Origin: Tubulanus polymorphus
Taxonomy: Eukaryota > Animalia > Nemertea
DNA length: 64,000 bases
Assembly: GCF_964204645.1 (NCBI RefSeq)
Contig: NC_134027.1
Location: 14,850,485-14,914,484, forward strand
Reading direction: 5' to 3'
The first letter of the stretch is position 1. The number at the start of each line of letters is the position of its first letter. Under the pieces are notes generated by a model, which saw only the letters and a list, made by a program, of their open reading frames with translations, was not told where the DNA came from and did not search any database. Made by a program: the position numbers and the translations under genes. This document shows, one piece after another, positions 1-64,000 of this stretch.

Positions 1-484
1 TTTTTCATAGATTTTCTATCTTTATTGTAGAATAAAACTAAAAATCTAATGTTTTCTAAAAAAAATCTTTAACAATTGAATTATATTTTTGATTTAAAAC
101 CCATGTTGTTATCCCGAAATGTCTACCAGAAAAAGCTAAATAACATAACTCACTCTCTCTAATTTTTGAATCATGTAAATTTGCGCAATCATCTATGATA
201 AATAATGTATTTGATCCTTTATAAATATCAATTGCTATTTTTATACAATTATCTAAATTTTCTTTTACTGTTTTATGATCTAATATAATAAATTTATTAT
301 TTCTAGTAATATTTCTGTCATAAGTTTGATTTAATTCATATGTTGGACAAAATAATACTATATTATCAAAATAGTTTTTATAAACAGTTTCTAATAAATT
401 TAATATAAAATAAGTTTTTCCACAATTTGTTACGCCAGAAATTAACATATTATGAGGCTCAAATATAAATAATTCCTTATTCAT
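1..484 (-). pseudogene. Genome-packaging ATPase (A32/FtsK-HerA family); frameshifted near nt 60 and running off the window
   Basis: Walker A GVTNCGKT, Walker B LFIIDD, and the downstream SGRHFGITTWVLNQ motif typical of Polinton ATPases. Confidence 0.88.
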
Positions 485-1612
485 TTATATATTTTTAATT
501 TTACTTGATAATATCCATTCATTGAATTTATCTGGCCATCCAACCCATTTTACTAAAGAATATTTTTTTCTTTTAACAGTTTTTGTTTTTAATACTTTTT
601 CAATTTTATATTCTTGTTCTAGATTTTCAGTAGTTAAACTTAATTCTTCTTCGTAAAAGTAGCCATCAACTTCTTCACCATCTAAATCTTCTAATTTATA
701 GACATATGGTTTTGTTGTTATTACCTTTTTTATTTTATATATTTCCCTAGTAAAATTTCGATCGTATCCTTTGTCAAATATCTTTTTATACTTAGAAATT
801 CTAACATTTTGACCAACTTTAAATTTAGGTTCACCAAAATCATCTACAAGAAATGCTCCATATAAATTATTCCAAACAATTTCAGCATTTTCAGGTTTTC
901 TAGCATCAATAGGTTTCATTCCAATAGAAGAATGATAAGAATTATTATATCCTTCTATCAATTTTGGTAAAACATCAATCCATTTAAAAGTATTATTTGC
1001 TGTAAAATATTTCCACATTCTTGTTCTTATTGTTCTATTAAATCGTTCAACAACTGCTGCTTTTTTATCCGATTTTGTTGAAAAATATTTAATATTATGA
1101 ATGTCTAAGAGTTCATGAACAAGTGAATTATCAAATTCTTTTCCATCATCCAATTGTATTTTTTCTGGTTTTATTTTATCATCCGAAAGAAATTTTCTTT
1201 AAACATTTGATGTTTGTGCAGCATCTTTTCTGTAAAGTGGGAAACTCCATACATAACGACTAAAAATATCAATTATATTCAATATCCACCAATAATCATC
1301 ATTATCTTTCTTAACATTATTCATATCAATTAAATCTCTTTGCCACTGTTGATCTACATAACTTACCATAGTTTTACGAGTTTTATATTTTCTAACATTT
1401 TTTTTATGTGTTGTATATGTTGGTTGTTCTAACATAAATTCATTTATATCTTTATATTTAACTAAATTTTGTGGGATTATCTTATCTAATTTATCTTGTT
1501 TTACTTGACGCCATATATTTTTGGTAGAAGAATAAGCAACCGAACTCTCAGGGTTGTAATATTAATTTCTTAAATATTGTTCTTTAGTATTAGGAGTTTT
1601 TTTACCGCCCAT
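485..1612 (-). pseudogene. Retroviral-like (c-)integrase with C-terminal chromodomain
   Basis: YYNPESSVAY N-terminus; WQRDLIDM / IDIFSRY / DDGKEF / KAAVVERFNRT DDE core; YKIEKVL...VKWVGWPDKFNEWI chromodomain. In-frame stops near 1563 and 1200. Confidence 0.92.
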
Positions 1613-1642
1613 TTATATATCGTTAGTTTTAACTTTATATTT

Positions 1643-2889
1643 CTAATATTGAATACTATCTAATTATGAATTTACAATATTTAATTGTGCGTCAGATATA
1701 ATATAAATGTGCATTTTGAAATTCAAGCTTCCTTTTTTCTTTTTCATGAATAATTGTATTCCATCTTTAGTGTTCTGTAGCTTTTTCCCAGAACCATGTA
1801 ATGAATTATCCTCTGTAGTTCTAAAATCTAACCATAATGCATATTTATTACCAGTATAATAATCAATTTGATTAATATTACAATTTTCAGATGATTTTAC
1901 TTTTTCATTCATAAAATGTTTTCTAATTTCTGGCCATTGATCTATCATTCTCATTCCTTGACAAAATATTTTATTTGCTATTCCTTCAATAGTTATTTCT
2001 ACGTTTGTTATTTCAGGATTATAATAATTATCTACCTTTATTGCACCATTAGTATATGTTGCAATGGTAAAAAATATTAATATACCTTTAATAGATCTTC
2101 TTGGGAAGTTAATATTCTCATTAATTATTTCATCATTTGCATTAATAGTTACAGTTTTAAATTTATCAATATAATCCTATAATAATGAAAATCCTTGATT
2201 GTATTGAGTTTGAATTGTATTAGCAATATTTTCATTAGTTACTGTGTTATATTCTAAACATATATTCGATAATTTATAACCCATATCTTTAACAACGTTA
2301 GATAATACAATTTCAATTACAGGAGCAAATGTTATCTCAAATATAATATCTTCTTGAATTGCATATTCATATAAAGGTGCATTATTATTTATCAATTCAA
2401 AGTCTAATGGAATTTTATTTGCTTCCATAAATCTTTTTAATCAAATTATCTACGTCATTAGCTACTACTGCATTATTGGCTTCAGATCTTAATTTATTTG
2501 GTTTTCCGATTGAATGCCTTGAAATATCATATATATCATATATTTTCTTTAGTTAACCATAAATCTTTATAATGCATAAATAAATTATAATCATCTAATG
2601 AGAAAACTGTTTCTGGACCAATCTGTATTGTTAATTTTTTAATCAAATATCTTCCAACATTATCAACAACATAATTGTTATTATTACCGGTTAATTTTAT
2701 ATCGGCTGATAAATAAATACTATTTGGAACATAAAAAGTATTTTGTGTTAACCGAGGAATTCTAACATATAAAGTTTCATCAGGATTAATATTAGAAGGA
2801 TTATGAGTAATTATATGATGAGACCTTTCTGCTTTAATAGCATTAGATATTCTATGATTCTTAGAAGGATTGATATAACTCCCACTCAT
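1643..2889 (-). pseudogene. Major capsid protein (double jelly-roll), broken into three or more ORF pieces
   Basis: Pieces 2536-2889, 2177-2428 and 1664-1954 join into ~410 aa with ITHNPSNI, LSNICLEY, YALWLDFRTTEDNSLHGSG and DAQLNI motifs, as I recall from animal Polinton MCPs. Confidence 0.75.
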
Positions 2890-2929
2890 CTATTTAACAA
2901 AAAAATTAATTATTTATTTTTTATCATAT

Positions 2930-4378
2930 TTACTTGATATTTTTTGATATCATATTCACTAACCCAAAAATAATTGCACTAACAATTGTAATTAAAAATA
3001 AAATAATATGTTCAGCAGCAAAGTTAAGAATATTACCTGGAGATTTCAATATAAAACCAACAATTGATGCAATAATTCCTGGTAAAGCTGCAGCAGATTT
3101 TTTAGATAGTTCCCATAAATATTTTGCTAATTTCTTTAAACCATCTTTAACTTTATCTTGTATAGAATTATTATCATTCGGGGGTTTATCCGGTTTATTG
3201 GGAGTAGGAGTAGATTTCAAAGAATTTGATATTGCTAAACCAATTGTTGTAAATAACATAGTTACAGCTGTTAGAATTGAAAGAATTGTTATTCCTTCTA
3301 ATTTAAATAATAACTTTATTCTATCTTTTAATGATATTTCAGAATTTGGTTTTATCAACAAATCTTTAAAAATAACTTTTAATCTATTAATATTATAATC
3401 ATATGATTTTAATAATAATTTAATTTCTTCTTTCTGCACTTCTAAATTATCTTTTAAATTATTAATTTCTTTTTCTTATCGTAATTCTTTTTGCCTATAT
3501 TCTATTTCATCAATTACTTGATGATCTAAATCAGACTTTAATTGTTCTATTTCTTTATTTTTATTTTTATCAGTTAATTCTTTTTCTAAAAATCTAATTT
3601 TAAAATCTCTTATACTTTTATTATGTGCAATTTTATCAGCTTCATTTCTTATACTAATAATTTCTCTAATTGCTTCATCAGAAAATGTATTTAAATCTTC
3701 TAATTGTTGATCTGTTGCATCAATTAATCCATTCGGTAAAAGTTTTTCAATTGGAACTTTATTTGATTTAAGTTTACTAGTTTTGGAAGTTATATTCTGT
3801 TCAGAAGTTGTTTCTGTTTCTGATTTCTTTTTTATTATTTCAAATAATTCATTAATTCTTTGTTTAAATACGTCTATATCATTACCAGTTAATTCTTGTT
3901 TTATAACATCAGTTATTACATTACTATTACTAATTCTTTTAATTCTATCTGGATCTAAATCACTCAAAGTTGATTTTGTTAATATTTTATTTTTATTATT
4001 TTTATAAGTGATATCAATATAATAATTACCTTTCAAATGATAAGACTATTTACCATTATCTAAAAATTTTAATTGATCTGCTAAAGGTCAAACGTCTTCA
4101 TCATTTATGTTAAGTTTAGAATTTTCAATTATACGTTCTAATTTAGGTATTTTGTTTAAATTATCTAAATCATGTTTTACTAAATCTGGGTCTAAATTTT
4201 CAGGATTTAATTTTGATTCTGCATTTTTAATATAATCAGGCATATTTAAATTATTATTATATTCTGGCTCATTACCGTCATTAAAACTTGTTTCACTAAA
4301 ATCAGGTTGTTGTTCATCAGTTATGCCAGGTTCATCAAAATTATCCATTCCAGTATCTTCTCCATCTTCTACATCCAT
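2930..4378 (-). pseudogene. Conserved Polinton protein: acidic N-terminus, coiled coil, hydrophobic/amphipathic C-terminal helices
   Basis: Pieces 4088-4378, 3476-4036 and 2930-3439. C-terminal LKDRIKLLFKLEGITILSILTAV...AAAALPGIIASIVGFIL. Confidence 0.6.
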
Positions 4379-4399
4379 TTATATAATAAAAAAATTAAA

Positions 4400-5782
4400 A
4401 TTTAAAATATAATATTCCTCCTATAACAATTCCTATACAAGTTAAAGCTAATTAAGCATTTTCATGGGATTTATTATCATCATTTAGTTTAATTATTTCA
4501 TGTTGAATATTATCAGTTTTAATATTTTCTGTAGTATTGTAATCTTTTATTTTAGAATCATTATCCAATTTAATATTTTTAGTTTTAGTTTTAGTTGATT
4601 GAATATGTTTTTTATTTTTTTCACCTTCCATTAATTTTGGAGCAGTAATAATCTTTTTATTTATATCATTTAATCCAAATGAATTATTTATTGTTGCAGT
4701 TTTAATAAGATTATTATAACCAATTATATTTCCCATCTTTAATACTAAATCATTAGAAATAATAAATAGATTAGGGCCTATACAATAATTTAATCTAATA
4801 TGTGATTTATCTAAATAATTTTGATATCTTACAATGTTTTCTGGAATCGATCTATTTTTATCATTATGAATTGAATCTTCAAATAATACTTTGAATTGTT
4901 TCTGCGCAACAAATGATGTATTTACATTTCCAATTATTGGGGATCTTGTTTCAACTTGTGAACCTAGAATACATATCAAATAAGTTCTAATTGATTGATT
5001 TATTCTTTGTATACCTGATTTTGTAAAACCTTAACTATTTTCTAAAATAAAATAAACCCAACCATTATTGTTTTCTTGTTTTAAATGATCATAAAATTTC
5101 GGTAATCTATTGAAATTTAATGTTTCTAAATCCTTTGTTTCTATTTTACCATAACCTAATTTATTATTATAGATATTATAAAAGCTATTAGATGGTATGG
5201 GAAGTGTACAATATGCTGCAACATTTTCAGGGCAGAAAGTGATCTTATTGTTCCAAGTTTTGTTCTAAAATCAGAATTATTAATATCTATATTAAATTCA
5301 TTGCAAATTTTATGAAACTTTGATAAACTAATATTATTATCTAATTCTTTAAAATATCTAGATCCTGGTAAAGCACACTCTAATTCATTTAATATTATTC
5401 TGATTTGAAAGTATGTATGAAATCTAAATAAACTTTGAATTAATTTATATTTAGAATTATTCAAATGATCATTCCAACTAATTCCACAACCTGTTGTTGC
5501 ACAATAAACAGCAAAATTTAATTGGTTCTGCCAATACTTCATATTAGATTTTAATAAGCATTGTTTTTCATCTTTCAATTTTTTAAAATTAATTAAATAT
5601 ACATGAAATATATTTTCCATCTTTGCATTAAAATTATTAGTTTCAGTAACATAAATTTCTAAATTAGTTAATGAATCTAAAACTTCATTTCTATATGTAA
5701 TATCTTTATTAAATTCTATTGCAGGAATATTATATTTAATTGATTTATTACATTGGAAAGCTTTTAGAAAACTATCTACCAT
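4400..5782 (-). pseudogene. Conserved uncharacterised Polinton protein
   Basis: Pieces 5156-5782 and 4452-4979; motifs WQNQLNFAVYCATTGCGIS, FRFHTYFQIRIIL, ILGSQVETRSPIIG. Confidence 0.6.
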
Positions 5783-5798
5783 TTATTTAATTAAAAAA

Positions 5799-6224
5799 TT
5801 AATAATTTATTAATTCTTTTAATAATTTATCTTGTTCTTCAACTGTAATATTACCATTTAAACTTATTATATAATCGAGTGTATTCTTTAATTTATTAAT
5901 TTCTTTTATATTAGTTTTAATCTTTTCTTTATTACTTTTTATATTTAATTTTGAACTTATGCCAGTTAAAACACTTGAACTTAATCCTAACACGCCAATT
6001 GATATAGCTAAAGGTGTTAATGGTGAAAATATTGCTAAAAATGTTATTACAGAACTAATTGTAACTGAACCACTTATAATCAAATAATATATAATTTTAC
6101 TTTTTAAATATTTTTTCTTTTTTATCTTTAAGTCACTTTCAAATTCTAATATTTGTTTTTCTAAATATATTTTTAATTTGGTTTTATTTATATCATGAGG
6201 AATAATATCAATATTATCATCCAT
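5799..6224 (-). CDS. Small viral protein with two predicted transmembrane segments
   Basis: Intact 141-aa ORF with a central hydrophobic hairpin; preceded by the shared T-tract-TAAATG motif. Confidence 0.65.
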   Translation of the reverse strand: MDDNIDIIPHDINKTKLKIYLEKQILEFESDLKIKKKKYLKSKIIYYLIISGSVTISSVITFLAIFSPLTPLAISIGVLGLSSSVLTGISSKLNIKSNKEKIKTNIKEINKLKNTLDYIISLNGNITVEEQDKLLKELINY

Positions 6225-6245
6225 TTATTTAGCAAAAAAAAATTA

Positions 6246-6668
6246 CTAATTAGTAAATCTATATGCTACAAATATAACAATAACAGTTCCTCCTAAAATC
6301 CATATTATTTCATATTTCTGTTGTTCTTTACTAGGGATATAATAATCTGATATTGTAGGTTTATGTAGATGTAATTTTTCTTTATTGGTTACCGCGTTAT
6401 ATAAACACATTGCATCATCAACTGATTGAAAATCTCTATGTGAAATCTTCTGATCATATAATTCCTTGTTAATATAATCCATATAGTTTTGTCGTTTTTC
6501 TCTATATTCTTCTGCTGCTTTATTATATTTCTCTAATGCTAAGTTATGTCTTTTTTGTTCTGTTAATGATCCATTTTTATCAATATGCTTAAATTAATAA
6601 CCACCACCAGTTAATGCTAAAGCGTTAACAATTGCCGATCCTATAAAAGTTATAATTGCAGAAGCCAT
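6246..6668 (-). pseudogene. Small viral membrane-associated protein (one in-frame stop)
   Basis: ATG at 6668 gives MASAIITFIGSAIVNALALTGGGY*FKH..., in frame with ORF 6246-6482; C-terminal hydrophobic segment. Confidence 0.6.
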
Positions 6669-6692
6669 TTATTTAGCAAAAAAATTATGCAT

Positions 6693-6914
6693 TTATATGG
6701 GAGGAATATATTTTTGTTTTTCCAAATAATCAATAGTTAAATTAGATAAAGTAACTGCTAATGTTAATTTTAAAATATCATTTATATCAAATCTATCAAC
6801 ATTAACACTTCCCATTTTGAATACTTTTTTTAATACCATTGAATAACCAACAGTTCCAACTGATAGTAATGCTCCATTATATAATCCAGTTATTATCCAC
6901 TTATTATCACTCAT
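6693..6914 (-). CDS. Small hydrophobic viral protein (73 aa)
   Basis: Intact ORF preceded by the shared start motif. Confidence 0.6.
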   Translation of the reverse strand: MSDNKWIITGLYNGALLSVGTVGYSMVLKKVFKMGSVNVDRFDINDILKLTLAVTLSNLTIDYLEKQKYIPPI

Positions 6915-7210
6915 TTATTTATCAAAAAATTACTATCATCAAAATATTTAGTAAACTTATTTATGATTAAATCAACATTTATTTCATTACTAGTTTCGTT
7001 TGTATTTATTTCAATTATTATTTTTTTAATATCATCGATGATAAAATCTTCATCTAATTCATAAAATCTTAAAGATTCTCTAATTAAATTAGTAATCTTT
7101 TCTACATTTAAAGTTTCTTTATCTATTGTTGTTTCATACTCAAATGTTGTTTCATTAGAAAATGCAATATTTTTAATATGTATAATTACATCAGAAATGT
7201 TAAATTTCAT
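6911..7210 (-). CDS. Small acidic viral protein; may originally have started at 7270
   Basis: 99-aa ORF. An in-frame upstream ATG at 7270 carries the full start motif and is separated by a single TAA. Confidence 0.45.
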   Translation of the reverse strand: MKFNISDVIIHIKNIAFSNETTFEYETTIDKETLNVEKITNLIRESLRFYELDEDFIIDDIKKIIIEINTNETSNEINVDLIINKFTKYFDDSNFLINK

Positions 7211-7286
7211 TTATTTCTCACGTTTAATATCAAACCCAAAACATATACTCGGCCCAACAGTTATATTCATTTATATAATGAAAAAA

Positions 7287-8039
7287 TTACTCTTTACATT
7301 TTATAACTAATTCATAAATTACGGGAAAGTTATTTAAATCAATTAAGTATCCATTATGATTTCTTATATCTAATTTGAAATTATTGAAATGTGAAATGCA
7401 AGGTTTAAAATCACATTCAGTTAAATGATAATTTATTTGCGTTCCAAATTGTTTAACATTTTTTAATGGTAGAATATTTAATAAACCAGAATTACAAGTT
7501 ATATCTTTAGTTGCTTCAAATGTTTTTGTAGGATCAATTAAATTGCAATAAATATAGAAATGTGTGTAAGGCATTATATTTGGTGTGGTATCAACATTTG
7601 AATAAAGTTTATCTGGTGTAATTCCTAACAGTTTAGCTACAGGTTTTTTAACTGAAAATTGATATTTTTCATTATGATCTAACCTTATCTTCATTTTATT
7701 AGAATTATCACTTTTCAAAAATCTAATGTTAAATCCAGCATCACTACCTAATTTGATCCGAGCTCTTTTATTAATTTCTTGCGTTAATGATTCTAAATTA
7801 TATAATCCTGGTTTTAAAAATAGATAATTCCGTTAATTCTTACTCCTGATTGAAAAAAATAAATGTTCAAGACTTTTATCCGATACATTATAAAAAGAGT
7901 TACATAAACTTATATTAACTAATTTTAAATCAACACAATTCTTAAATTCTCTATCTAATTGTATTAGTAAATTATGAGATTTATAATTTTTAAGTTTTCT
8001 AGAATCAACAAATATTCTGTATTCTTTTAATTCTACCAT
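7287..8039 (-). pseudogene. Minor capsid (penton, single jelly-roll) protein
   Basis: Pieces 7833-8039 and 7287-7718, ~250 aa; NSFYNV, GLYN, FYIYCNLI, LLNILP and DIRNHNGYLIDLNNFPVIYELVI pattern typical of Polinton pentons. Confidence 0.7.
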
Positions 8040-8107
8040 TATTTATAACATAAAAAAATTACCGCTCATCACTAAAAATTAATTTTAATAAAATTTTTCC
8101 TTAATAA

Positions 8108-9436
8108 ATGGATGAGAAGATAGGATGTGAAATTTGTGGTGAACTTCTAAGAAAAAGTAATATGGCTCGACATATGAAAAAACATGATGAAAATTATAAA
8201 CCCTCTAAACTAAACTGTCCAAAACGTAATAAATTATTCTCAAGAAATTATGTTAAAAAACATTCAGAGAAGTGTAAAATTAATGGCGCAACGGCTATTG
8301 TTGATAGTAACGAAAGTAATAGTAATTCTGTCGAAGTTGAACCTGAAATTATTTGGAAAAGACCTTTCTTATTCTATGATAAGGATAATATAAAAGATCA
8401 TTTCTGTGAGCCTTGTCTAATGAAATTTAGTCCTGAAAATATAGAAGATTGGGAGAATCATCAATTTCGTAAAGTACATATGGAAAAAATTTCTAATAAA
8501 TTTGAAACTGAATTCAATGAAAGAAAAAATAGTTTATTAGAAAAAATAAAATATGAGAAAACGTTACCAGATAATAAAGAAACAGTTGAAAAGTTAGAAA
8601 AACAATATAATGAATTAACAAGAAAAACATATTATTGTAAATATTGTAAATTGATTATTACAACAAGTAATTCAAATCTACATAATAGAACAATAAAACA
8701 TAAAGAAAACGTAAGAAAATACCAAGAGCTTAATGAAGATCTATTACCAATAAATTATAAACGAAAATGTCCACAATGTAGTTATGCGACCTTAAGACAA
8801 GAAGGTACTGTGTTATTTTGTGTTGATTGTGGATGGCAAAAGAATTTATGGGGTGAAGAAAAAACTAGAAATTTTCTCATAGATCCAAAATTAAATTATC
8901 TAGATGAAATTTTTAAAATATTTTCTATGGAAGATCATACACCAGAATATAAGCAATGGCTTGAAAAAATGAAAATAATAGAAAATAAAAATGGTGAAAT
9001 AACTAAAAAAGATATTATAAAAACAATTATTCCATCAACATTTAACACAAAACAAAAGAAAATGTATTTATATTTATTATTTAACGATTATTATGAAAAA
9101 CCTAAATTAACAGAAGAAGATATGGAAAATATAAAAAAAACATTCAAACAAATATTAATGTATCATTTGGAAAATAGAATAACAGATTCAATTAATTATG
9201 AATTCTTTTTAAATAAGATTGTAAATTATTTAAACATCGATATTATAATTCCATTTGACGAATTAACAAACAAAAAGAAACAAAGAGAGCGATATGAAAT
9301 GTGGCACAATATAACACGTTATTTAAATGAGAAAAATGAAATGGAAGAACCTAAACAAATTATACAAGAACAATTAAATGAAAAAGAAGAAACCAATAGT
9401 GATTTCGCGTATGATGATATTGATTTTCTGTTTTAA
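8108..9436 (+). CDS. Multi-zinc-finger protein with a putative poxvirus late transcription factor VLTF3-like C-terminal half
   Basis: Intact 442 aa. C2H2/U1-type fingers, then a CPQC-x13-CVDCG ribbon, then KPKLTEED..FKQI..SINYEFFLNKIVNYL..KKKQRERYEMWHNITRYL. Confidence 0.6.
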   Translation: MDEKIGCEICGELLRKSNMARHMKKHDENYKPSKLNCPKRNKLFSRNYVKKHSEKCKINGATAIVDSNESNSNSVEVEPEIIWKRPFLFYDKDNIKDHFCEPCLMKFSPENIEDWENHQFRKVHMEKISNKFETEFNERKNSLLEKIKYEKTLPDNKETVEKLEKQYNELTRKTYYCKYCKLIITTSNSNLHNRTIKHKENVRKYQELNEDLLPINYKRKCPQCSYATLRQEGTVLFCVDCGWQKNLWGEEKTRNFLIDPKLNYLDEIFKIFSMEDHTPEYKQWLEKMKIIENKNGEITKKDIIKTIIPSTFNTKQKKMYLYLLFNDYYEKPKLTEEDMENIKKTFKQILMYHLENRITDSINYEFFLNKIVNYLNIDIIIPFDELTNKKKQRERYEMWHNITRYLNEKNEMEEPKQIIQEQLNEKEETNSDFAYDDIDFLF

Positions 9437-12400
9437 TGGCCATAAGGTAATGTTTTTGTACCATCATCTAAAATATGCCTTTTATCATCAAATGGATTCA
9501 AACTAGTTTTTTCAACTTCATTAATGTACTATTTTCTGATCTTAAACAATTCATTTTATGTTTCATTACAATTGAGTTATATAAACACTTTATATAATCT
9601 TGAAATTCTATATGTTTATCAACCACATGTTTTGTTATTCCTTTTAACTTTTTAGCTTCATGATCTTTTTTTCTGTAACTATACATTTTACTTCTTATCC
9701 CAACAAATTCAATCATTTCATCACCCCCTAATTCATCTTTAAACTTACCAGAAATCTTTTTATTATCATTGCTAAATAGTTCATGATCTTTGGGATAATT
9801 GCTAAAATCAAAATGATGTTTTAATGTTTTTAAGTCTTTTGTTATGTCATTTGTCTTGATTTTTAGTATGTAACTGTCAGTATTGAAGCAAATTAATGGA
9901 AATCCACAGTTGAATGTGCCATCTTCAGTTGATAAATCATAAACATAATCTGTTGGGTTATATATTTCAAATAAATCTTTAACTTCTTCAGTTAAATCTT
10001 TTTCTGTGTGGCTTAAATTAAAGCAATTTGGTTTAGATTTAATCAATCCAATATTCATATTGAAGCCTAATGAATTACATAATATATTTAACCCTGATAT
10101 AGCAACTTTTCCTTTCTGTGCAAAGGTTATCTTTTTATCCTTTGTAAATTTTTTAGCACCATCTGCTGCGTAGAATCCAATGAAGAACCATTTTCTTGAA
10201 TTATTTTTTGCATTTAATACATAATCTGGAACTATCTTTTCTTTAGTTGAAGTATTACTTTTCACTATTGCATGAATATAGAATTCATCATTATATTTTA
10301 TAGCAAAATCTTTAGGATTATTTACAAGTATTCTATAAACTGCTGATGATTTCATAACATCCATGATTTTAAATATTTTATTTGGATAAACTTCTTCACA
10401 ATATTTCTTTATTCTTTCTAATAATATCAAATCTTGATTGCATAAATACCAACAATATTGAGTGCGATTAACATATTTATACACACCTGCTGAACATCAC
10501 CCATGATAAATCCTTTGATAAAATATTCTTTTTCTTCTAATGTTTCAGGTTCTATATTATGAATATTATCAATAATTTCGTCGAATGACATATGATTCAT
10601 TCTTGGGAAATATCTTTTATGTAATAATTCATCTCCAATTTTTATATCAGTTGGTTTTATTTCATCGCCATTTCGTTTAATTAAACTATGATCTTCTGTA
10701 ACATCTACAAACCCTTATTTAGTTCTAACTCTATAGATTTTCTTATTTGTTTTATGCCTAATAATATTCTTTATTTTTTTCCATCCATTTCTTGTCCAAA
10801 CATCCATTAAACCATTTATTTGTATTAATTCTTTTTCACCATATGAAATATAACATTCATTTTGTTTTGGAATTATTTCTGAAATTCTTCTTATCAATAT
10901 TTTATCATTACATTTTAATAATATTGGGGTGTCAGCTGTTACAGAATCAAAATATAATATTTCAATATGCTTTTCCCCAAAAAGTGGTTGTAAAACATTA
11001 TAATAAAAATCATACATTAATAATTTTGATACTTCTAAAACAGTTGAACCAATGAATATAGGTTTATTAAATTTAATTGACGTTCTTTTTAATTTAACTG
11101 CTGTTAAATAATCTTCAAATATTTTATTTCGTAAATGTCTAGGGCTTGATTGTAAATGCCTTAATCGTTCAGAATTATTTACTAATTCAATATCATTTCT
11201 ATTTCTAATATTTTCGCATGTTTTACCATAAAAACTATTATTCATTAATTTGAAGAAATCTTTTTCAAAATCTGTTTTTGATATGGTTCTCTGTTGAGTA
11301 TTGAAATCTATATATTTTTCTAACCCTTCGATTGATTAAATTCAATATATCTATGTACTTTCTTTAATTTCATTCCTTGTTTTAGATAAAATTTTAACAT
11401 TCTATAATGAACAATATAATTGTATTTATTATTTTGAGTAAGTATTAATTTTTCTGTAAAAACATGATCTTTCGGTTTTATTTTCTTCTGGTATTCACTT
11501 AAATAACTATCATCTACAGTTAAATGTTCTGGGCAATAAGGTAAGTTTCTTGTTTTAAACTTTATATTTTCATGATATTCTAAATCAACTACAAAGAAAT
11601 AACCAATTGGTGCTTCATCTTTTAAACTCGCAATTGCGCTTTCCCAATCAGTTTTATCATCATTTTCAACTTCTGTCAATATAAAATTTTTATATGGTTG
11701 AGGTTGCATCATTGCCCAACCATATAAATTATTGGCGTCAATATATAATAATTTATATTCATCATTTGCTTTAAAATACCTATCTCCCATAACACCACTA
11801 ATTCCACCTCTAATTGATTTTTCAAATAATAAAACCATGTCTGGTTCTTTTAATAAATCTAATTCTACATTTGTATATTTTAAACCACATTGCCAGGTTA
11901 AACCAGGACTTGAGTAGCAATAACAAGGATCAACATTAAAATGATTCAAATTAACTTCTCTAAATTTTTCAAATATGTCAGCCAATATCATCACATCTGA
12001 TTTTAAATATAAATCAACTAATTCACCATGATTTTTCATCTTAAAATGGTTCCAAATATTTAATGTTCTATTAAACACTTCGTCTTTCACATACTCCTCT
12101 TTTAATTGATCATAAAATTGATCTTTTAATAATTCTGTTACATTAAAATCATTGTGTGTTTTATAAAATGAATAAGGAATTGCGCCTTTATATCTCAATA
12201 ATTTAAAATCTTGTTCATTTGGATAATAATATCGAGTTATAACAAAATCATTATCAACTAAACTTTTTGCTAAATTATCTAATGAACTTGCTAAAAATCT
12301 ATAAGAATCTAAAAATCTAATGCAACCAAATTGAAATGAAATATAATTTTCAGATGTTTTAGCTAATAGTTTAAAATCATATTTCCTTACATTTACACCA

Positions 12401-14480
12401 TTCATAGCATTATATTCTTCTATTTCTTGATTAATTGCGCCCAATTTTCCCGATAATTGTTTTATAAATAGATGGGTATCATAGCCTGATAAATTATGAA
12501 ATAATATTGGAACGAAATTTACTTTTTTAGCTTGTAAATTACAATCTTCATGAGCAGCTCCACGATATTTTGAATTTAAATGATCATGATCTCTAACTTT
12601 TTTATCAAATGAATAAAAACGTTTTTCACAATAACAACTTTGAGTTGCATAATTAAAATCAATTTCATCTTCTTTTGTCATAACTATTCTTTTATTTTTG
12701 TTTAATAATCACTTTCTAATTCAATCATTTTGTTACAAAAATCATTAACTACATCTTCACCTCTAAAAGAAATATATTGACTTTCATATAATTTGGGATA
12801 ATTTGATTTGATGTAAATTCCATAAGCAGCAGCTCTTTGATGAACTTTTTTAATTGTATTTATAATTGGCGGGTCTTGTGTTGTGTCTTCATTTAATTCA
12901 TTTCCTTTATCCATTGATTTTAATAATTGCTTTTTGTTATATATTTCTTTTCTATCTTGATCAGTTAATTCTTTATTCAACGATTCAAAATCCCCATAAA
13001 TTACAAATGGAACAATATTCTTAAATTTATGATTAGTAAATTTCAATTTATAATCTTTTTCTGTTGGCATTATTAATTTACAAAAATCGTTATTATCACA
13101 TAATTCTTTATGTTTTAGTAACGCATTCTCAGTTCTAAATTTAGATGAACATTTTCTACATAGATAAATTTTATGACTGTTAAAATCACTTTCTGTTCTA
13201 AAGAATAAATCAATTTGTTTTAACCACATATAATGTTCATTTACATCTTTTTTGTAATATAACAAATCTATAGCATTTTCATCATCATAATATTCTGTTA
13301 AATATAAAGCTTCCAATGTATAATCTTCAATATTTTCACCTTTTGTCTTTGGTAATTGCATTAATTCGAATACATTTATTTTTAACTCATTAATTTTTTC
13401 TATTTTGGGTATCATTTTTATAATTACTGGATATTGATCAATTTTATATAATGTTTCATATTTCCGGTAATTTGTTATTCTAAAACTATGCGTAATATCT
13501 TCCGTTGGGTGTAAGCAACTAATAATTGACCATAGAAAACATTTATTATCTTCATTTTGAACATTTATTACTGCTTTTGTTGTAAATGGTAATTTAATAT
13601 AAGATGATGCTTTAATATCCTTTTCTGTTGTAAAGCTTGAATCATTTTTAAACATTGTTTTACTTTTTGATGTTTTATTCCTTTTTGTATTATAAACATT
13701 TAAATCTAAAAATATAATTTCATTTAATGATAAACCAGAACCCTCAAAATATCTTTCTTCAATAACACGTTTAAATTCATTAAATATTTTTTCTAACTTC
13801 TCTTTTATTTGCGTTTTTGAAATTATTTCTTCAGAGAGTGTTTGAATGTTATAATCCATTTTCTCTTCTGACTTTAAAAAACTTACTTTCCCAGAGATAC
13901 TAATTTTTGGATATTCAACATCTGTTATCAAATCTAGCATTTTTTCTATTATTTCATTAAATTTACTATAATCTTCTATTGTTGTACCTTTAAAAAATCT
14001 AAATATAATAGCTGCAGGACCAATTTTATTACGTAATGTTTCTAATATTTCAATTGTATCTTTTATTTCTAGTGAATCAATATAATTTCTAACATTTTCC
14101 ATGTAAGGTTTATTTGAAATGGATTTAGTTTTTGAAGTTGGTTTTTTTACTTTTTGAGGTTTATCATCGAAATAATCTTTTCCTAAAACATTATTACTCA
14201 AATTTTGATGGTGTTTTTGTGATTCGAGATGTCTATTATAATTCCTTTTTACTATAAATTCATTACAAACTTCACATTTTATTTCATCCACATTCATATT
14301 TTCTAATCGTTCTTTTCTTTCATTGGAATTTTCTGAAGTTTCAAAATCTATAACATTTTTTATATGATTTGAAGATTTTTCATGACGCGATTTTTGAGAT
14401 TTATCAATGTATTTTTTACAATATGGACAATAATATTGATTTTCATTAACATCAATTTGTTCTGTCTTATTCTCTCACAT
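9433..14480 (-). pseudogene. polB: Protein-primed family B DNA polymerase (pPolB) with endonuclease VII-like insert and an intein
   Basis: Exonuclease motifs YGDFES, FHNLSGYD, YLKSDV; motif A YIDANNLYGWAM; motif B KLMNNSFYGK; motif C LYFD/TDS split by the intein; C-terminal FDDKRHILDDGTKTLPYGH*. At least six lesions (codon 2 TGA, ~12700, ~11325, 10716, ~10496, ~9525). Confidence 0.95.
9882..10945 (-). mobile_element. Intein with LAGLIDADG homing endonuclease in pPolB motif C (reconstructed 355 aa; one stop, one 1-nt deletion)
   Basis: Block A SVTADTPILL; block B GFVDVTEDHSL; endonuclease motifs YFIKGFIMGD(GS) and WFFIGFYAADG; block F YVYDLSTEDGTF; C-terminus LICFN followed by +1 Thr. Removal restores LYFD-TDSY. 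Confidence 0.93.
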
Positions 14481-14489
14481 TTATAAGGA

Positions 14490-14819
14490 AAAAAAATTAC
14501 TTGTGGTGATGAGTGGGGATTACTTCCCCTTGTATATAACAAGCGCGCTATTAACCGTTCTCATCCAAGCCTCACAGCATCTATTTATCCGGGCACAGTT
14601 GACACGCAATCACTGTACTACTACAGTAATAGCACACGCGTTAATAACCGTTCTCAGTAGCACTCACTGTATCAATCTATCCATGCGCAGTTGTTGTTAC
14701 GCGCAATCACTGTATATGTGTATCACAGAGCAATCGTCCGTTCTCACTAGAACCTAGCTGTGATGAGTGGTGTCTCGACCTCTCGACCTCTGGTATGAAA
14801 ACGCCATCTTCTAATTACT
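14490..14819. repeat. Candidate right terminal inverted repeat of the Polinton
   Basis: Abrupt GC rise after the pPolB start; internal repeats (CGCAATCACTGTA x2, GTGATGAGTGG x2, TCTCGACC x2). The partner copy is outside the window. Confidence 0.5.
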
Positions 14820-15890: not shown

Positions 15891-17623
15891 AGGTATATAC
15901 AGTCAACCTCTTAGCGGTTAATCCGCATCACTAGGGACTGAGCTTTTTAGTATGGATAATATGATATACGGCTAACAGATAATTCGTAATTGATACGAAT
16001 TAACTTCTATCCATATAAACTATGATTTAAGTGCACAATCTGTAAAATAGCCTGTTTAGAAACCATGGACGACTTCTACAGTAGAACCACCTTCTAACGA
16101 ACCATTGGGGGAATAAAAAGTTCATAGTCAAATAGATCTAATGAACCATCGGATACTATGTCATAGTATCCGCTGGTTCATTAGATCCATTTGACATCAT
16201 TTATACATGAAAAGAAAAAACCTATTTGAACTATTTGAAGCAATCGTCATCGTACATCTTAAGTAAAGATATAATATGTGAGTGTATACATACGTCTCAT
16301 GTACTTGATGAGGGCAATTAATTAAAGGATTTTTCCTTGTTGATAATAATAAGCATCTGGACAAAAATTAACTCGACCTCACTACTGAAGTCAATGGATT
16401 ATTAAGTGAAGCTTGAGACTAGTATGACTATGATTAACGTGTTTTCTGGAGTTTCTCATATTTCCTACCAACCATACATAAATTGGACAACGGGACCATG
16501 CATTTGTCTACGGAATAATTGAAAATATGGATTATACAGTGAAATAATCTGACACAGAATTTTAAAAGGAATAACATTACTGAAAAACTGGACCAATTTA
16601 TTGACACGGAATAAGCACTTATACGGTTTAACAGGAGACGGATTAACCGATGTTGACTGTATAATCAAATGATGTTGACTGTATAATCGATTCAACAAAG
16701 GGTTAGTGGCAAGTTTCTCTGACAAACCGTAACACCAGTAAACTGCATATCCTGAATAACCGCTGTTCGCTTTATTGTATCTATAAGTTTCATCTGTGTC
16801 CTGGTAGTTAGTGCGGTCGGAGTTGTAGTCCAATTTTGATTGAATCTGGTATACCCAAAAAAAAAATTCCTTCTGTATATGTACAGCTCTACAGCTAGCT
16901 AACCAATATATGTTTATTGTGTCATATATAATGGTATAAACACTGATAATAACTGGTATAAACTGATAATAACATCAGAAAGAATTAAGGAATCTTATAC
17001 AACTTTTAAAATGATAAAATACATGATGAAGATTTATCATGCAGTGCAGGATTATAGGCTGAGAGCAGTTCTATTATTTCAGACATACCATGTTATTTCA
17101 TTCAAAATTGTATTTATACAATTTTAAATCTTAAAATAAAATCCGGAAGTAAAACAGCAGACAATACCATGGGTTCACGTTAACACCTACTGATTTCTGT
17201 GGCTAAGCCAATCAGAGGAGACTTCCCTTTCACTGATCGGCTTTTCAAAACTGATATTAATGCGATCATATTTTTGCGAAAAAACTCCTGTCAGTTTCAA
17301 CAAGGTCCTTTTTCAAAATTCAGCTCCCTAGGAATTGGAAAATTGATAATGCTTTAATGAATGATTTGTATGCATATATACTTAGTTGCACAGTCAAAAG
17401 GTCTTATCTCTGGAAACCATGTCATTCAAATTCGCTCCATTTCTATAGTTATAGGCTCAGCCTATGGCTTGCGAAACGAGCTGAACCTATTAACTATCTA
17501 TAACAAATCAAGTTTTTTTTTTTAATGGAAAAACACAGCCTGTCCCACACATGTATATGTGTTGGATATAGACCTAATATACTAACTTGTTATGCCATAG
17601 CAGTTATAATATAGTTATATATT

Positions 17624-17750: not shown

Positions 17751-17900
17751 TCATTGGTAGGCAAAGTCATAATTCGAGGGCTCCTTTGGTATTGGTGGAG
17801 GATTTTCCGGTATTGTCACGCCTTCGATATCAAGCAATCTCAGTTTTACTTCAATTCCGAGCAATGTCTCCAGATCTTGAGCCGCCTTCTCACTTGTCAT
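17751..17900 (-). CDS. ELMO: ELMO/CED-12 terminal coding exon
   Basis: [49 protein letters not shown]; polypyrimidine tract and AG acceptor at 17901-17902. Confidence 0.95.
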
Positions 17901-18152
17901 CTGAAAACAAAAAAAAATTATCAAAACTCTTTCGAGTAACTACTGGTTGGTATGGCACCATGTAGATTGGTCAGTGGGATACCTGTAACTATAGTTAGAA
18001 ATAATAACTTTGAACAATAAATGAACACAAAGCTAGAGCAAGGAATCTAGATGAGGGAGATAATTAACACTATAGGATGAAGTTTCATTATAACTGCTAT
18101 GGCATAACAAGTTAGTATATTAGGTCTATATCGAACACATTTTGATCAGTAC

Positions 18153-18278
18153 CTCTTTTGACAATAATGCATTGATCCCATCAGTCCACATATGAAATGT
18201 TTCTTCATCTGGTGCAAAAAACTGCAGTGGCTCACCATCAACATTTGGATTCAACGAAAATGACAGATTTGTAAACGA
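18153..18278 (-). CDS. ELMO: ELMO exon (end of PH domain)
   Basis: SFTNLSFSLNPNVDGEPLQFFAPDEETFHMWTDGINALLSKE; AG/GT boundaries, phase 0-0. Confidence 0.93.
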
Positions 18279-23978: not shown

Positions 23979-25658
23979 GTAATATTACTATGTAATATCA
24001 TAGTCCTACTATCAATTGTTCGCCTTAAATCTCACACGAATGACCAGTAATGACATTGACCTTGATCCTTGGACCCCAAAATCAATAGGACACATCCTCT
24101 CCCAAGGAGTAATCATAATATGTAATATCATAGTCCTGCTATCAACAGTTCTTCCAGAATCGCGTTCACAAGGTTTCACATGAATGATGTCTAGTGACCT
24201 TGACCTTAAATGATCCTTGGACCCTAAATTCAATAGGGCACATCCTCTCCGTAGGAGTAATCATAATATGTAATATCATAGTTCTGTTATCAACAGTCCT
24301 TCCTGAATCGTGTTCACAAGGTTTCACATGAATGACCCATAGTGACCTTGACCTTTGATCCTTGGACCCAAAATCGAATATGGTACATTATTCTTGAATC
24401 CCCGCCTGTGGTTATAAAAAAAAAAAATTAGAATGTGGCAACACCGCGTGTATATGCCTGGTTAAGCAATAGAAGACAGGTGTCATATTGCATACTTCAT
24501 AGAAAACAGCGCAGTTAAAGGTCAAATGCCCTCTAATTCCTACTTTTTAAGATTAACTTTCCAAATAACATTTTAGTATATAAATGACAGCCTTGGATGA
24601 GCCTTATAGAAAAAAAATAACGTATTTGTCTTAAATCAGTAATATTAAATAACTGGTTCATTAACCTATATAGCGTGTGCATCGCTACATGGATCATAGC
24701 CTCAAGACCAACCAAAATTCAAAGCAGTTTGAGAAGCACATTGAAGGCTATTTACCCTCATGAAAAACATTTTCGCGGCAATATATCCTAGCTTCATCCA
24801 TTCAAAAACAATCAAAACAGCTTTAACAGTTTTTATTGTGCCACTGCTGACCAAAATTCACTGATATTTACCAACACAGCCAACTACAGCAACTTTAAGA
24901 AATTTGATAATTTCAATTTTGAGCCAGTGACCGAATGCCTACAGACTTTTTAATTAGCTGAAGTACAGATTTTCCACGTAAAATCTTGAAAATATAACGG
25001 AAGAAATAAGTGTGAAAACTGTATTGGGCTGAATTCAAATGATGGGAGAACTTACTTTTTGCAATCAATTAGGATGGAAATATCAAGAAAGAAATCTTTT
25101 ATTTTCTTAATTGTATCTGATGAAAACACAACATTTTTCAACCAGATGTTTTTGGCAGGATTTCAGAAGGGATCCATGCTCCAAGTCAATTGACATCATA
25201 GGGCCGGGCCGTAGGAGCCGTAGCGGCTCGAGCCGCCCAAATATTTTACTAGTTACATTTTTTTAATGTAACATTTTTGGGGTTTCCGCCTTGGCAAAGT
25301 TATATAGGTGCTGATTGAGATCAATTTAACAGAAAACGATTCGATGATCAGTAAATAAATTTTGTCATTCAATGATCGATTGTGGCCACGCTGGCCATTA
25401 TTAGATAATAAGTATTTTTCCCCCAAACTTATATCTAAACGATAGACTTATGAGTCCCTGACGGTTATTTATTTGAAAATGTTGATGATTTGCAGTCATT
25501 CTATGATATCGCACATGAATCTATCACACATCAGTCTATGATAGATTCTAGGTAATTTTCAGAACAATTAAAACAGATACTACGCGAGCAACACACGCTC
25601 AGATAAATAATTAATCCAACATTTCTATATACATTAATTCAAGGGAAGTATAAAATGT

Positions 25659-26874
25659 AAACTAGGGGTCCAGGGACACCATGCCCACTTGGGAAGTGGT
25701 TTCAAATGCTCAACAATCTTACAATTTCAATATTCAACACCCCCTGGTGACCATATACAAAAACCAATGACCTTGAAACTCACCACAATCATAGAACATA
25801 TTGTCAGCAGCTACAATTTTGTAATTGATTGTGATAACAAAATATGCCTCGTTACCAATTTAATATAGAAATACTAAGTTATTCTACTATTCAATGCCCC
25901 CTGGTGACCATATTCAAAACCCAATGACCATGAAACTCACCACAATCTTAGAACATATGATGAACTACAACTTTGCAATGGATCATGGTGACAAAAGATG
26001 CCTAGGTACCAATAAAGGAAATACTAAGTAATTCTACTATTCAACGCCCCCTGGTGACCATATAGAATAACTTATGTCCTTAAAACTCACCACAATCATA
26101 GACGATGTCATGAGCGACAACTTTGCAATGATTGTGGTAACAAAATATGCATTGGTACAAATATGATATAGAAATACTAAGATATTGTATTATTCAACGC
26201 CCCCTGGTGGCCATATACAGAAACCAATGACCTTGAAACTCACCACAATCATAGAACACGTTATAAGCTACAACTTTCTAAAAACTTTTTCCCACCTACG
26301 AATGAGTACTGGTAACTCCAAGATGGCCGCCAATTGCTCATAATTGGTTGATCAAAAATACCTGTCTCAGGTATAAAACATCCCTTTCCAAAGAATACCC
26401 ATCAGCAATTGCCATCAGAAATGGCAAACCAGTAGGAACCTACAGGACTCAGAATTCGGGCCAAAATTGACATTTTTGGGCACTAAAAAGGTTATATGCC
26501 ATCTTGAGTCCGATCAACCCAATTTTTGTCACGGTTATGGGCCCTGGGAGGATTCAGATATATATGAAAGATCAAAGCGTCTTCAAAATTTCTCTCAAAA
26601 AGTTCAAAAATGTGTAAAAAGTGCTGATTTTGGCAAATAACAATGGCTGCCAGTTAGCCATCTTGATTCTGACAGGGCCAGTTTTTTGGCTGAAGATTTG
26701 TCTAGGGTAGATACATGTGTAACCGAAATATCAAGACATTACATTGAAGCGTCTTCAAACTTCCAAAAATAACTGGATTCCGTCTACGGACGGACGGACG
26801 GACGCTATGAGGGACGACGGACGAAAAGTGAACGCAATAGCCCGCTGGGACCTAAGTCCCAAGTAGGCTAAAAA
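25659..26874 (+). mobile_element. Helentron-associated (HINE/DINE-like) non-autonomous element
   Basis: Four ~150-157-bp core repeats, a (GGAC)n microsatellite and a 3' stem-loop before an A-run; second copy at ~54856-55650. Confidence 0.65.
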
Positions 26875-49600: not shown

Positions 49601-50760
49601 TTCCGAAAGGAAGAGCCCTTTTTTGGAGCCTTCCCCTTGCCCCGATACAAACCGGAACCGTTACGACCAGACGAGGCTTGACGCGATTGTTGAAGCTGCG
49701 CGCTAGTTCTCCAACCGGCATCCGTAGCCGCCTGAGAAAGCGCTGAACTTTAGAGTTGGTCCTGTTTGCGTCCGTGCCGAACCTTGCGCCGCCGGTGTCG
49801 GACCCGAACGCTTTTTCCACGGAGTTTGGACGGTGGACTTAGTCTGGACCTCCCGATCCTCAGCTCGGCGGAAACAGGAGCGCACCAACCGGAGAAGAGA
49901 CGTGAAGATGTCCCCAATGGAGCTCTCAGCAAAGAATTGGACACCATATCTGGTAGACGAGCTTTGGAACTGGAGACCATAACTGACTGACATGAGGCTA
50001 ACACAACATTAGCCTTACCCCGAACAGACAACGGAATTACATGTGAAACAGACCCAGCCAAAGATTGGATAATCTGGTCCATTCCCTCTAGTTTTAGGTG
50101 CCAGCCGGGTTGTGCCGGTATCTCCACAACGGCGACACGCGCTCGGTTCAGAACGGCTGAACCGGTGACCGACCAGCGACCGGTGCCGGTGAACTAGCGT
50201 TCCTCCCCGGTGAACAGCTTCCGAGCCTTATTGGCCCGAATCCAAAGGTCCTCGGACCAAACCTCGCAAATCTTGCAAAGATTACTCCTAGAACAGATTT
50301 GGCCAGATTTATGCCTGCACAACGCACACGAACCGTGGTCAACCCAGGCACTGAATAAATGTCCACATCCCTCACTGCCACGATGCTGACCTTTAGGAGG
50401 GGGCGGCATAATTATTCAATTAATCGGTCACAAAAATGAACTAAATTAAATTAAATTAGTTAAATTATTTCGGGAAAAAAGAAACAAGGGATAGCCCCCA
50501 AACCAAACGGACTCACCGTCACGAGAGTGATAACTCCCTTAAATTCCTAATCCCTTTGATTTTTTGGCAAAAAAATCCAATGCATTCATATACAAGAACG
50601 CCAAGAAAAAAGATGGCGGATTTCGCCAGTGGCTAAATGCAATACCGCAGGGCCGGGTTGTATAGTAAAAACCATTGGCGATCAATCCAAATTTAGAAAA
50701 TATTGGCAAAAACCATAGGAAAGGGTACAGTACTCGACGGAGATATACGTTGGCATGAAA
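46630..50760 (-). mobile_element. DIRS1-like tyrosine-recombinase retrotransposon, degenerate (ends approximate)
   Basis: Cys-rich gag N-terminus (50194-50409); RT with LPFGL and YLDD (48838-49500); RNase H FTDAS; methyltransferase-like DLFA..DAFSLDW..YAFPP; overlapping YR pieces ending in HQVRSMAT. Confidence 0.9.
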
Positions 50761-56692: not shown

Positions 56693-56975
56693 ATTTAGGG
56701 CTATTATATACCTGCAATACCCGAATACGCATTGAGAAGCAATATGCAACAATAAGTAAAACAGACGCTGAATGCTTTTATGGTTCACCCGATTATCAAT
56801 TGCCCCGAGACCATCATCATCCCGCTAGTTTTTACATGACTTTTGGACTATTTGGAGAAATGCTATTTTTGGTACTGAAATCTTCCATGGATCGGCAGGG
56901 AATTTCCCCCCTCTAGGGAATAAGTTGGACAAATTTTTCTTTTCTTTTACAGGTTCGACGCTGGGCTGAACTTAC

Positions 56976-57145
56976 ACAATTGGTTTCGCCTGCGATTCCC
57001 ACTCTTCTTTTGTCTGCCGCTCTTGTTGCCAAATGTTGGTAATTTCAGCATATCTCAGCTGTTCCAATTTCTTCTTAAACTGATCAAATGTACCTGGATT
57101 AGTCTCCAATGCTCTAGTTATTTGTTCTCGAACAACTGCCAATAC
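56976..57145 (-). CDS. ELMO: ELMO exon
   Basis: VLAVVREQITRALETNPGTFDQFKKKLEQLRYAEITNIWQQERQTKEEWESQAKPIV; AG/GTAAG boundaries. Confidence 0.95.
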
Positions 57146-63544: not shown

Positions 63545-64000
63545 AAGACGTCTCCTCAGGGGTTATCATACTATGAAATAGCATTGTTCTGTTATCAATG
63601 GTTCTTCTTGAATCGTGTTTACAAGGTTTTATATGAATGATATCTAGTGACCTTGACCTTTTCCCCCAAAATCAATAGGGCACATCCTCTCCCTAGGGGT
63701 AATCATACTACGTAATATCATGGTACTGCTATCGACGGTTCTTCTTGAATCACGTTCACAAGGTTTCACATGAATGACCTGTAGTGACCTTGACCTTTGA
63801 TCCTTGGACCTCAGATTCAATAGGGCACATCCTCTCCCTAGGGGTAATCATACTACGTAATATCATGGTCCTGCTATCGTCTTAAATGACGTTCACAAGG
63901 TTTCGCATGAATGACCTGTAGTGACCTTGACCTTTGGTCCTTGGAACCCAAAATCAGTAGGGCACATCCTCCCCCTAGGGGTAATCATACAGTGTAATAT
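63545..64000. repeat. Tandem array of the ~120-bp GACCTTGACCTTT repeat family
   Basis: About four units; same family as 22690-24390. Confidence 0.85.

Follow-up and report, generated by a model that had tools for sequence, protein, structure and literature searches.

The Polinton element and its host surroundings

The window, i.e. the whole stretch of 64,000 nucleotides that was analysed, starts within a cluster of decayed virus-like genes and runs on into DNA with a spliced gene of animal type. Judged from its predicted genes, the stretch from position 1 to 14,500 is a Polinton-type element, in which a decayed DNA polymerase B of the protein-primed kind (pPolB) occupies the minus strand of 9436-14480 (PF03175 54.6 bits, cut-off 25.8). 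The following features were assigned to the element:

56..484, minus strand: piece of an A32-like packaging ATPase (PF04665 46 bits, cut-off 22.8)
485..1612, minus strand: integrase-like gene with chromodomain, in pieces (rve E 0.0085, Chromo E 4e-5, both under cut-off)
1664..2889, minus strand: fragmented gene, likely for a double jelly-roll major capsid protein (weak Capsid_N match, E 0.0034; Atlas 0.95-0.96)
9436..9881, minus strand: C-extein of the pPolB, begins with TDSYIL, frameshift near 9525 (tblastn with P0002 and P0144)
10946..14480, minus strand: N-extein of the pPolB, in pieces, breaks near 14477, 12710 and 11325 (PF03175 54.6 bits; tblastn with P0002 and P0144)
14478..14500, minus strand: T-run and TAAATG at the pPolB start, also present at the majority of the element's intact gene starts (sequence)
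484, 2889, 4378, 5782, 6224, 6668, 6914, 7210, 7270 and 14480 (minus strand), 8108 (plus strand): TA(A/G)ATG gene starts, most with an upstream T-run (motif scan)

The Atlas matches of the capsid gene are clusters in which 10-45% of the members carry DJR or capsid families. Outside the insert described below, the polymerase has at least four breaks, namely a stop that immediately follows the start, near 14477, and further ones near 12710, 11325 and 9525. Only one long gene of the element is open on the other strand (8108-9436, plus, 442 aa); it is convergent with the polymerase and contains zinc-finger motifs (zf-U1 E 2.5e-7).

The GC content amounts to 21-25% over 1-14,500 and mostly to 32-41% beyond, with a step at about 14.5 kb. 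Terminal inverted repeats or a target-site duplication were not found in the window; the left end of the element lies outside it, the right end was not recognised, and other copies of the element diverge from the window sequence after 14800. A stretch of 254 nt at 14506-14759, which is bounded by an 11-nt direct repeat and is absent from 241 reads of run X6, probably represents a short insertion or a duplication at the element end in the window copy.

Beyond the element, three host exons were recognised:

17754..17900, minus strand: last coding exon of host ELMO (human ELMO1 E 2e-16; spliced contig in run X3)
18153..18278, minus strand: PH-domain exon of host ELMO (human ELMO1 E 4e-5; joint 17900/18153)
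56975..57145, minus strand: upstream exon of host ELMO (human ELMO1 E 3e-10)

The first-pass annotation had placed a spliced metazoan ELMO gene near the element, and this proved correct, since all three exons match human ELMO1 and a contig of run X3 splices 17900 to 18153 across CT..AC ends; approximately 39 kb separate two of the matched exons. Spliced ELMO exons with matches to human ELMO1 mark this DNA as animal-type. The last coding exon is bracketed by a 54-nt inverted repeat with 98% identity (17557-17610 downstream and 18087-18140 in the intron). Furthermore, the host part contains a GC-rich retroelement at 46633-50400 on the minus strand (PF00078 reverse transcriptase, E 3e-14), whose frames overlap and which looks DIRS-like on visual inspection, and tandem repeats of 137-150 nt at 24032-24388, 25731-26277 and 63551-63990.

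An intein insert in motif C of the polymerase

An insert of 1064 nt (9882-10945, minus strand) interrupts the pPolB in motif C as YFD|TDS, at a position which we take to be the 'pol-c' site of PolB inteins. Its N-junction reads EILYFD|SVTADTP at 10946/10945 and its C-junction GFPLICFN|TDSYIL at 9882/9881. The motif C split, the insert length and the exact restoration of LYFD-TDS upon excision had been claimed in the first-pass annotation, and the coordinates bear this out: removal of the insert restores motif C, and the empty relatives P0142-P0144 show YFD-TDSY at this place. One of these intein-free relatives, P0144, matches both flanks of the insert with residues 1062-1199 and then 1183-1307 at 73-74% identity. 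Within the insert, the expected Hint blocks A, B, F and G and two LAGLIDADG motifs with acidic ends could all be located:

9882..10945, minus strand: broken intein of class 1 type (Ser1 to terminal Asn, +1 Thr), LAGLIDADG domain in its centre (junctions, motifs, TIGR01445; fold taken from the homologue P0002)
10610..10945, minus strand: N-terminal splicing region with block A SVTADTP and block B TEDH, the latter at 10688-10699 (TIGR01445 35.7 bits)
10715-10717, minus strand: in-frame stop within the N-terminal splicing region (sequence)
10496..10522, minus strand: LAGLIDADG motif 1, FIKGFIMGD, with a single-base frameshift immediately after it, near 10495 (sequence)
10158..10187, minus strand: LAGLIDADG motif 2, FFIGFYAADG (PF14528 E 0.018 here, over cut-off in homologues)
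9882..9986, minus strand: C-terminal splicing region with block F YVYD, block G ending in FPLICFN and penultimate Phe (sequence)

Class 1 inteins are defined by Ser or Cys at position 1, Asn at the end and Cys, Ser or Thr at +1 (excerpts of PMC4031507), and the insert has Ser1, a terminal Asn and Thr+1. Block B includes the Thr and His residues and block F the Asp residue. The penultimate residue is Phe instead of the usual His, unlike the common assisting residue of class 1; some inteins without a penultimate His are on record (PMC4031507, in part), and among the relatives of the pPolB intein His, Lys or Ser is found at this position. A Hint profile search, as proposed in the first-pass annotation, gave a TIGR01445 score for the N-half above the cut-off of 24.5, and PF14890 reached 20.8 bits, under its cut-off of 35.8. 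The match of the C-half to LAGLIDADG_3 (PF14528) is weak and below the cut-off, which is exceeded by unbroken homologues.

Taken together, we regard the window insert as a LAGLIDADG intein of the giant-virus PolB motif-C family inside a Polinton pPolB and predict splicing and cutting activity for its intact relatives. The particular copy was described as dead from the outset, and the TAA at 10715-10717 as well as the single-base frameshift near 10495 are indeed present. With these two lesions and the breaks in the polymerase, the window copy is unable to make a working protein.

Unbroken relatives and predicted fold

Both intact and intein-free alleles, which the first-pass annotation had suggested to look for, exist among database proteins. 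A search with the N-half of the insert gave 204 matches among 722 candidates; in the best 120 of them, P0002 ranks first, an open pPolB of 1693 aa on a contig of 12,969 nt with an intein at the same site, which is 67% and 60% identical to the window intein over the two halves. Further open carriers are P0017, P0158, P0010 and P0472, and the partial carriers include P0477, P0496 and P0513, the last being 74% identical to the C-half of the window intein. Only P0010 exceeds the PF14890 cut-off among the four full pPolB carriers that were scanned. Both acidic LAGLIDADG motifs are kept in all 17 full-length pPolB inteins examined, seven of which are near-copies in one cluster. A comparison of the window C-half with viral contigs yielded 25 pattern matches, none of which was confirmed as a relative, and the Atlas search with the intein returned only PolB-intein clusters, all below 0.9.

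The structural check that had been proposed for the window insert was made on the homologue P0002. Its intein was modelled with AlphaFold at pLDDT 86.9 and pTM 0.88, and the top Foldseek matches of the model were the inteins TliVMA (E 1e-15), PhoVMA, PI-PfuI and PI-SceI as well as I-DmoI, with E values from 1e-15 to 1e-6. Hence, the unbroken homologue is predicted to fold like archaeal endonuclease inteins.

Patchy distribution and the footprint at the insertion site

Carriers of the intein are rare among Polinton-type polymerases. In the best 120 of 2995 pPolB matches, 78 sequences were empty, two had a full intein and one an intein start, four showed an altered site, and 35 ended or diverged before reaching it. 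A quick extein tree of 45 rows, calculated without bootstrap and without P0157 and P0159, whose sites were not parsed, requires nine changes to explain its 12 carriers, at least six of which are forced by starred branches. The four exteins closest to that of the window (about 70-78% identical) are all empty. Moreover, the extein of P0017 barely aligns with that of the window and the inteins are 53% and 44% identical over their two halves; such intein identity between barely alignable pPolB classes calls for transfer between the classes. In the main pPolB class, the intein tree and the extein tree coincide in their deeper branches, grouping the window with P0002 and P0158 with P0010.

The finest resolution was obtained in the cluster of P0158, which comprises 136 members at 90% on contigs of up to 1.0 Mb; 15 of them were listed and 13 aligned, P0263 and P0265 being dropped as too short. 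Among these 13 sequences, seven carriers and six empty alleles differ in approximately 1% of the extein residues, but in four to five of the ten residues on each side of the site. This divergence peak is significant in four pairs (Fisher p 1e-10 to 1e-14), fades across some 60 residues downstream, and is accompanied by at least three distinct empty-site flanks on a 99%-identical backbone. In the wider P0158 family, a Cys five residues upstream of the site occurs in 19 of 24 carriers and in one of 71 empty alleles, these being related and not independent sequences. Furthermore, 35 of the 71 empty alleles (P0155-P0293) have Cys for Thr at +1, i.e. YxD-CDS versus YxD-TDS, and such alleles may possibly have escaped from the endonuclease. 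The divergence peak, the upstream Cys and the exchange of Thr for Cys in empty alleles are what co-conversion and target-site escape predict. Hence, we read the peak at the intein site as a recombination footprint, and database proteins lend good support to the spread of the intein among Polinton polymerases by recombination at this site.

It must be added that the divergence peak is also compatible with repeated loss by conversion from empty alleles. One or two ancient entries into a Polinton ancestor might have been followed by mere inheritance of the intein, with repeated losses by recombination with empty alleles and without any ongoing homing. The agreement of the two trees at depth within one pPolB class is in line with such a history, as are the small minority of carriers and the different empty-site flanks in the P0158 backbone, which fit separate losses. 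Nevertheless, we consider it rather improbable, because the endonuclease motifs persist in all 17 full-length copies examined, which is unexpected without selection on cutting, because the intein also occurs in a very distant pPolB class, and because Cys so often replaces Thr in empty alleles, as predicted for nuclease escape. The first-pass annotation had proposed homing among animal Polinton polymerases. Recombination at the site, as seen in the P0158 footprint and the patchy tree, agrees with this proposal, although gain as well as loss may underlie the patchy pattern and animal hosts are putative for the other carriers.

Copy number and presumed contiguity with the host

Three sequencing runs with the same species label, X2 and X3 from one study and X6 from another, cover the element as well as the ELMO region. 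In the 12% of X6 that was read as raw reads, the depth over the element is about 240x compared to 12-25x in single-copy host bins, the element reads are diverse, and 122 of 145 reads do not show the frameshift near 10495. This depth and the high proportion of reads without the frameshift place the intein in a multi-copy family, most copies of which are open near 10495. The X6 depth dips over the intein to 136 and 195 versus 244-277 in the flanking bins, which could be caused by empty alleles or by faster divergence; no intein-skipping joint was seen among 15 of the 180 joints.

The summed contig depth in X2 over 8000-14500 is 18,000-59,000 versus about 40 for single-copy host contigs, a ratio that far exceeds the roughly 20-fold one in X6, and such sums do not represent copy numbers. 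In X3, the run with the spliced ELMO contig, element contigs at 8070-12348 including the intein have depths of 22-130 versus 2-13 in host intron bins, and it is possible that they reflect transcription. Run X1, a marine metagenome (share 0.05), was set aside as evidence, as it contributed short scattered pieces only.

The Polinton could also stem from a symbiont, a food organism or a free virus and could have been fused to the animal contig during assembly. Such a join would agree with the change in GC content near 14.5 kb, where 33-40% gives way to 21-25%, with the fact that terminal repeats and a target duplication were not found, and with the excess of summed element depth over single-copy host contigs in X2; furthermore, no listed piece crosses the junction, and no listed read or contig links the window copy to single-copy host DNA. 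We regard an artefact of this kind as very unlikely, given that same-species-label runs from two studies contain both the element and the ELMO region, that the depth and diversity of the X6 reads are as for many integrated copies, and that at least six breaks in one gene would not be kept by a replicating virus.

Relationship to giant-virus inteins

The position of the pPolB inteins was analysed in two quick trees without bootstrap and with midpoint rooting, from the second of which five rows had been dropped. The pPolB inteins form one side of a branch with an SH-aLRT support of 100 in both cases (7 of 50 rows in the first and 8 of 32 rows in the second tree). This clade is nested among PolB inteins in the first midpoint-rooted tree, with supports of 84-96, and is sister to them in the second. 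On these comparisons, the nearest kin of the pPolB intein clade are inteins of giant-virus-type PolB. That the insert could be a Hint domain without splicing activity, be it hedgehog-like or of another animal kind, or could resemble an intein merely by chance, is nearly negligible and can be seen as largely refuted: the broken halves stay under the PF14890 and PF14528 cut-offs and the penultimate His is lacking, which speaks for this idea, but the insert lies inside a catalytic motif, ends with Asn|Thr, contains an endonuclease domain and passes TIGR01445, and it is most closely related to inteins lodged in this motif of PolB, among which penultimate Lys or Ser is common. A terminal Hint domain of the hedgehog type was rejected specifically, the insert being internal with an endonuclease and an Asn|Thr junction.

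Outside pPolB, the intein family was found in two genes, RNA-primed PolB with the junction YGD|TDS and topoisomerase II with D|TDG, at identities of up to about 42%. All 160 viral and metagenome loci listed with this intein family belong to one of these two genes and none to pPolB; the underlying profile scans spanned 62 of 64 and 19 of 64 parts, respectively, and do not bound the carrier frequency. A GVMAG label is attached to 19 of 80 viral loci. Similarly, the best 150 of 4132 matches among 50%-cluster representatives consist of 141 PolB, three topoisomerases and six unassigned sequences with YGD or GGD junctions, without any pPolB. The topoisomerase II carriers are L146, L147, L152, L156, L157 and L160 as well as P0003. 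The resemblance between the topoisomerase D|TDG and the polymerase D|TDS junctions suggests jumps between genes. The far greater diversity of the intein outside pPolB suggests a giant virus as the donor, the direction being one that trees without a true root do not prove.

A further hint to large viruses comes from the gene starts of the element. A T-run followed by TA(A/G)ATG is present at six of eight intact element gene starts versus four of 415 other first ATGs (p 8e-10), and three of these four resemble starts of broken genes. Vaccinia late promoters are characterised by TAAAT(G) across the start codon with T residues upstream (excerpts of PMC11980589), and entomopoxvirus occlusion bodies contain Polinton-like viruses (PMC11296320, in part). 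Such poxvirus-late-promoter-like gene starts hint at a large virus as helper for the element.

Proposed mechanism

We think it probable that the window contains a broken LAGLIDADG intein in motif C of a Polinton pPolB, the intact relatives of which are predicted to be self-splicing, were likely spread by homing and likely derive from giant-virus polymerases, and that integration would carry them into animal chromosomes. For the mechanism, we infer splicing, cutting, the direction of the jump and homing during co-replication. The precursor would splice by the class 1 route with an ester at Ser1, transfer to Thr+1 and Asn cyclisation, which would restore YxD-TDS. The freed endonuclease would then cleave motif C in the DNA of an intein-free Polinton that shares the cell, and with the carrier as repair template the intein together with a short flank would be copied into the cut element. 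Homing would occur mostly during the co-replication of elements, perhaps in the presence of a large DNA virus of the cytoplasm, and the intein would finally reach animal chromosomes when the Polinton integrates.

A more far-reaching scenario is a homing gene drive in animal nuclei, in which the giant-virus-derived intein would convert integrated germline Polintons, copies would alter their motif-C targets, and helper-transcribed Polintons would bridge inteins into animals. We put it forward tentatively and think it unlikely in this full form.

Implications and comparison with known systems

Inteins are said to be absent from animal genomes. An endonuclease-bearing intein of a multi-copy element in an animal-type genome qualifies this statement, though the gene is viral and does not belong to the host. 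Protein-primed polymerases join the known intein hosts, within the literature covered. As homing depends on carrier genomes meeting empty ones within a cell, the observed pattern is indirect evidence for co-replication and recombination of Polintons and for their contact with giant viruses. Moreover, the near-identical carrier and empty alleles make it possible to test, in a virus-like element of eukaryotes, for homing, for escape of the target site and for the length of conversion tracts.

The first-pass annotation had conceded that an earlier report of inteins in animal Polinton pPolB would remove the novelty; the literature on inteins combined with Polinton, Maverick, adintovirus, protein-primed polymerase or Metazoa gave no such description. 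In the papers covered, no intein is described from a Polinton pPolB or from the chromosomes of an animal, and supplements, Repbase or subscription papers could contain one. The word intein is absent from the main text of 10.1101/2023.08.22.554363, PMC8502044, PMC11296320, 10.64898/2026.06.19.733378 and 10.64898/2026.10.13.758929, and PMC12220804 and PMC13768754 treat inteins in general terms only. Already known are iridovirus inteins and inteins in endogenous viral polymerases of algae. The presence in Polinton polymerases of an intein that has an endonuclease and belongs to the giant-virus PolB family is apparently an unreported combination of known parts.

Eukaryotic inteins have been assigned to fungi, to protists, to plastids and, among large DNA viruses, to four families including Iridoviridae, with 67 viral DNA-polymerase inteins counted (excerpts of PMC5784728). 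Animal hedgehog/Hint domains share the Hint chemistry in an animal genome, but they have no endonuclease, do not ligate two exteins and are situated outside catalytic motifs (PMC5784728, in part). TliVMA, PhoVMA, PI-PfuI and PI-SceI, which are endonuclease inteins from archaea and yeast, resemble our case in the predicted Hint and LAGLIDADG architecture, whereas the sequence identity is only 11-17% and they reside in other host proteins of cellular microbes. Nuclease domains within Polinton polymerases are known as well, namely HNH and VSR insertions (10.1101/2023.08.22.554363; PMC11071308, both in part), which were suggested to 'result from intein invasions' (PMC11071308, in part). In contrast, the window insert combines a full splicing domain with a location in the catalytic motif C; the main text of 10.1101/2023.08.22.554363 mentions neither Hint nor LAGLIDADG nor inteins.

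Nuclear scaffolds of Klebsormidium, Tetrabaena and a labyrinthulomycete were reported to carry viral-like DNA polymerases with inteins (excerpts of PMC10710043). In these cases, too, the intein enters a nuclear genome within an endogenous viral polymerase gene, but the hosts are algae and a protist, whereas the carrier in the window is a multi-copy Polinton family; PMC10710043 makes no mention of Polintons, animals or Metazoa. The closest likeness is to the polymerase inteins of Nucleocytoviricota, with which the pPolB inteins share the motif C site (YGD|TDS), the S...N|T ends, the two LAGLIDADG motifs and, along the entire intein, as much as about 42% identity. Unlike those, the window intein has as its host the protein-primed PolB of a small integrating virus in an animal-type chromosome, and the pPolB inteins form a clade of their own.
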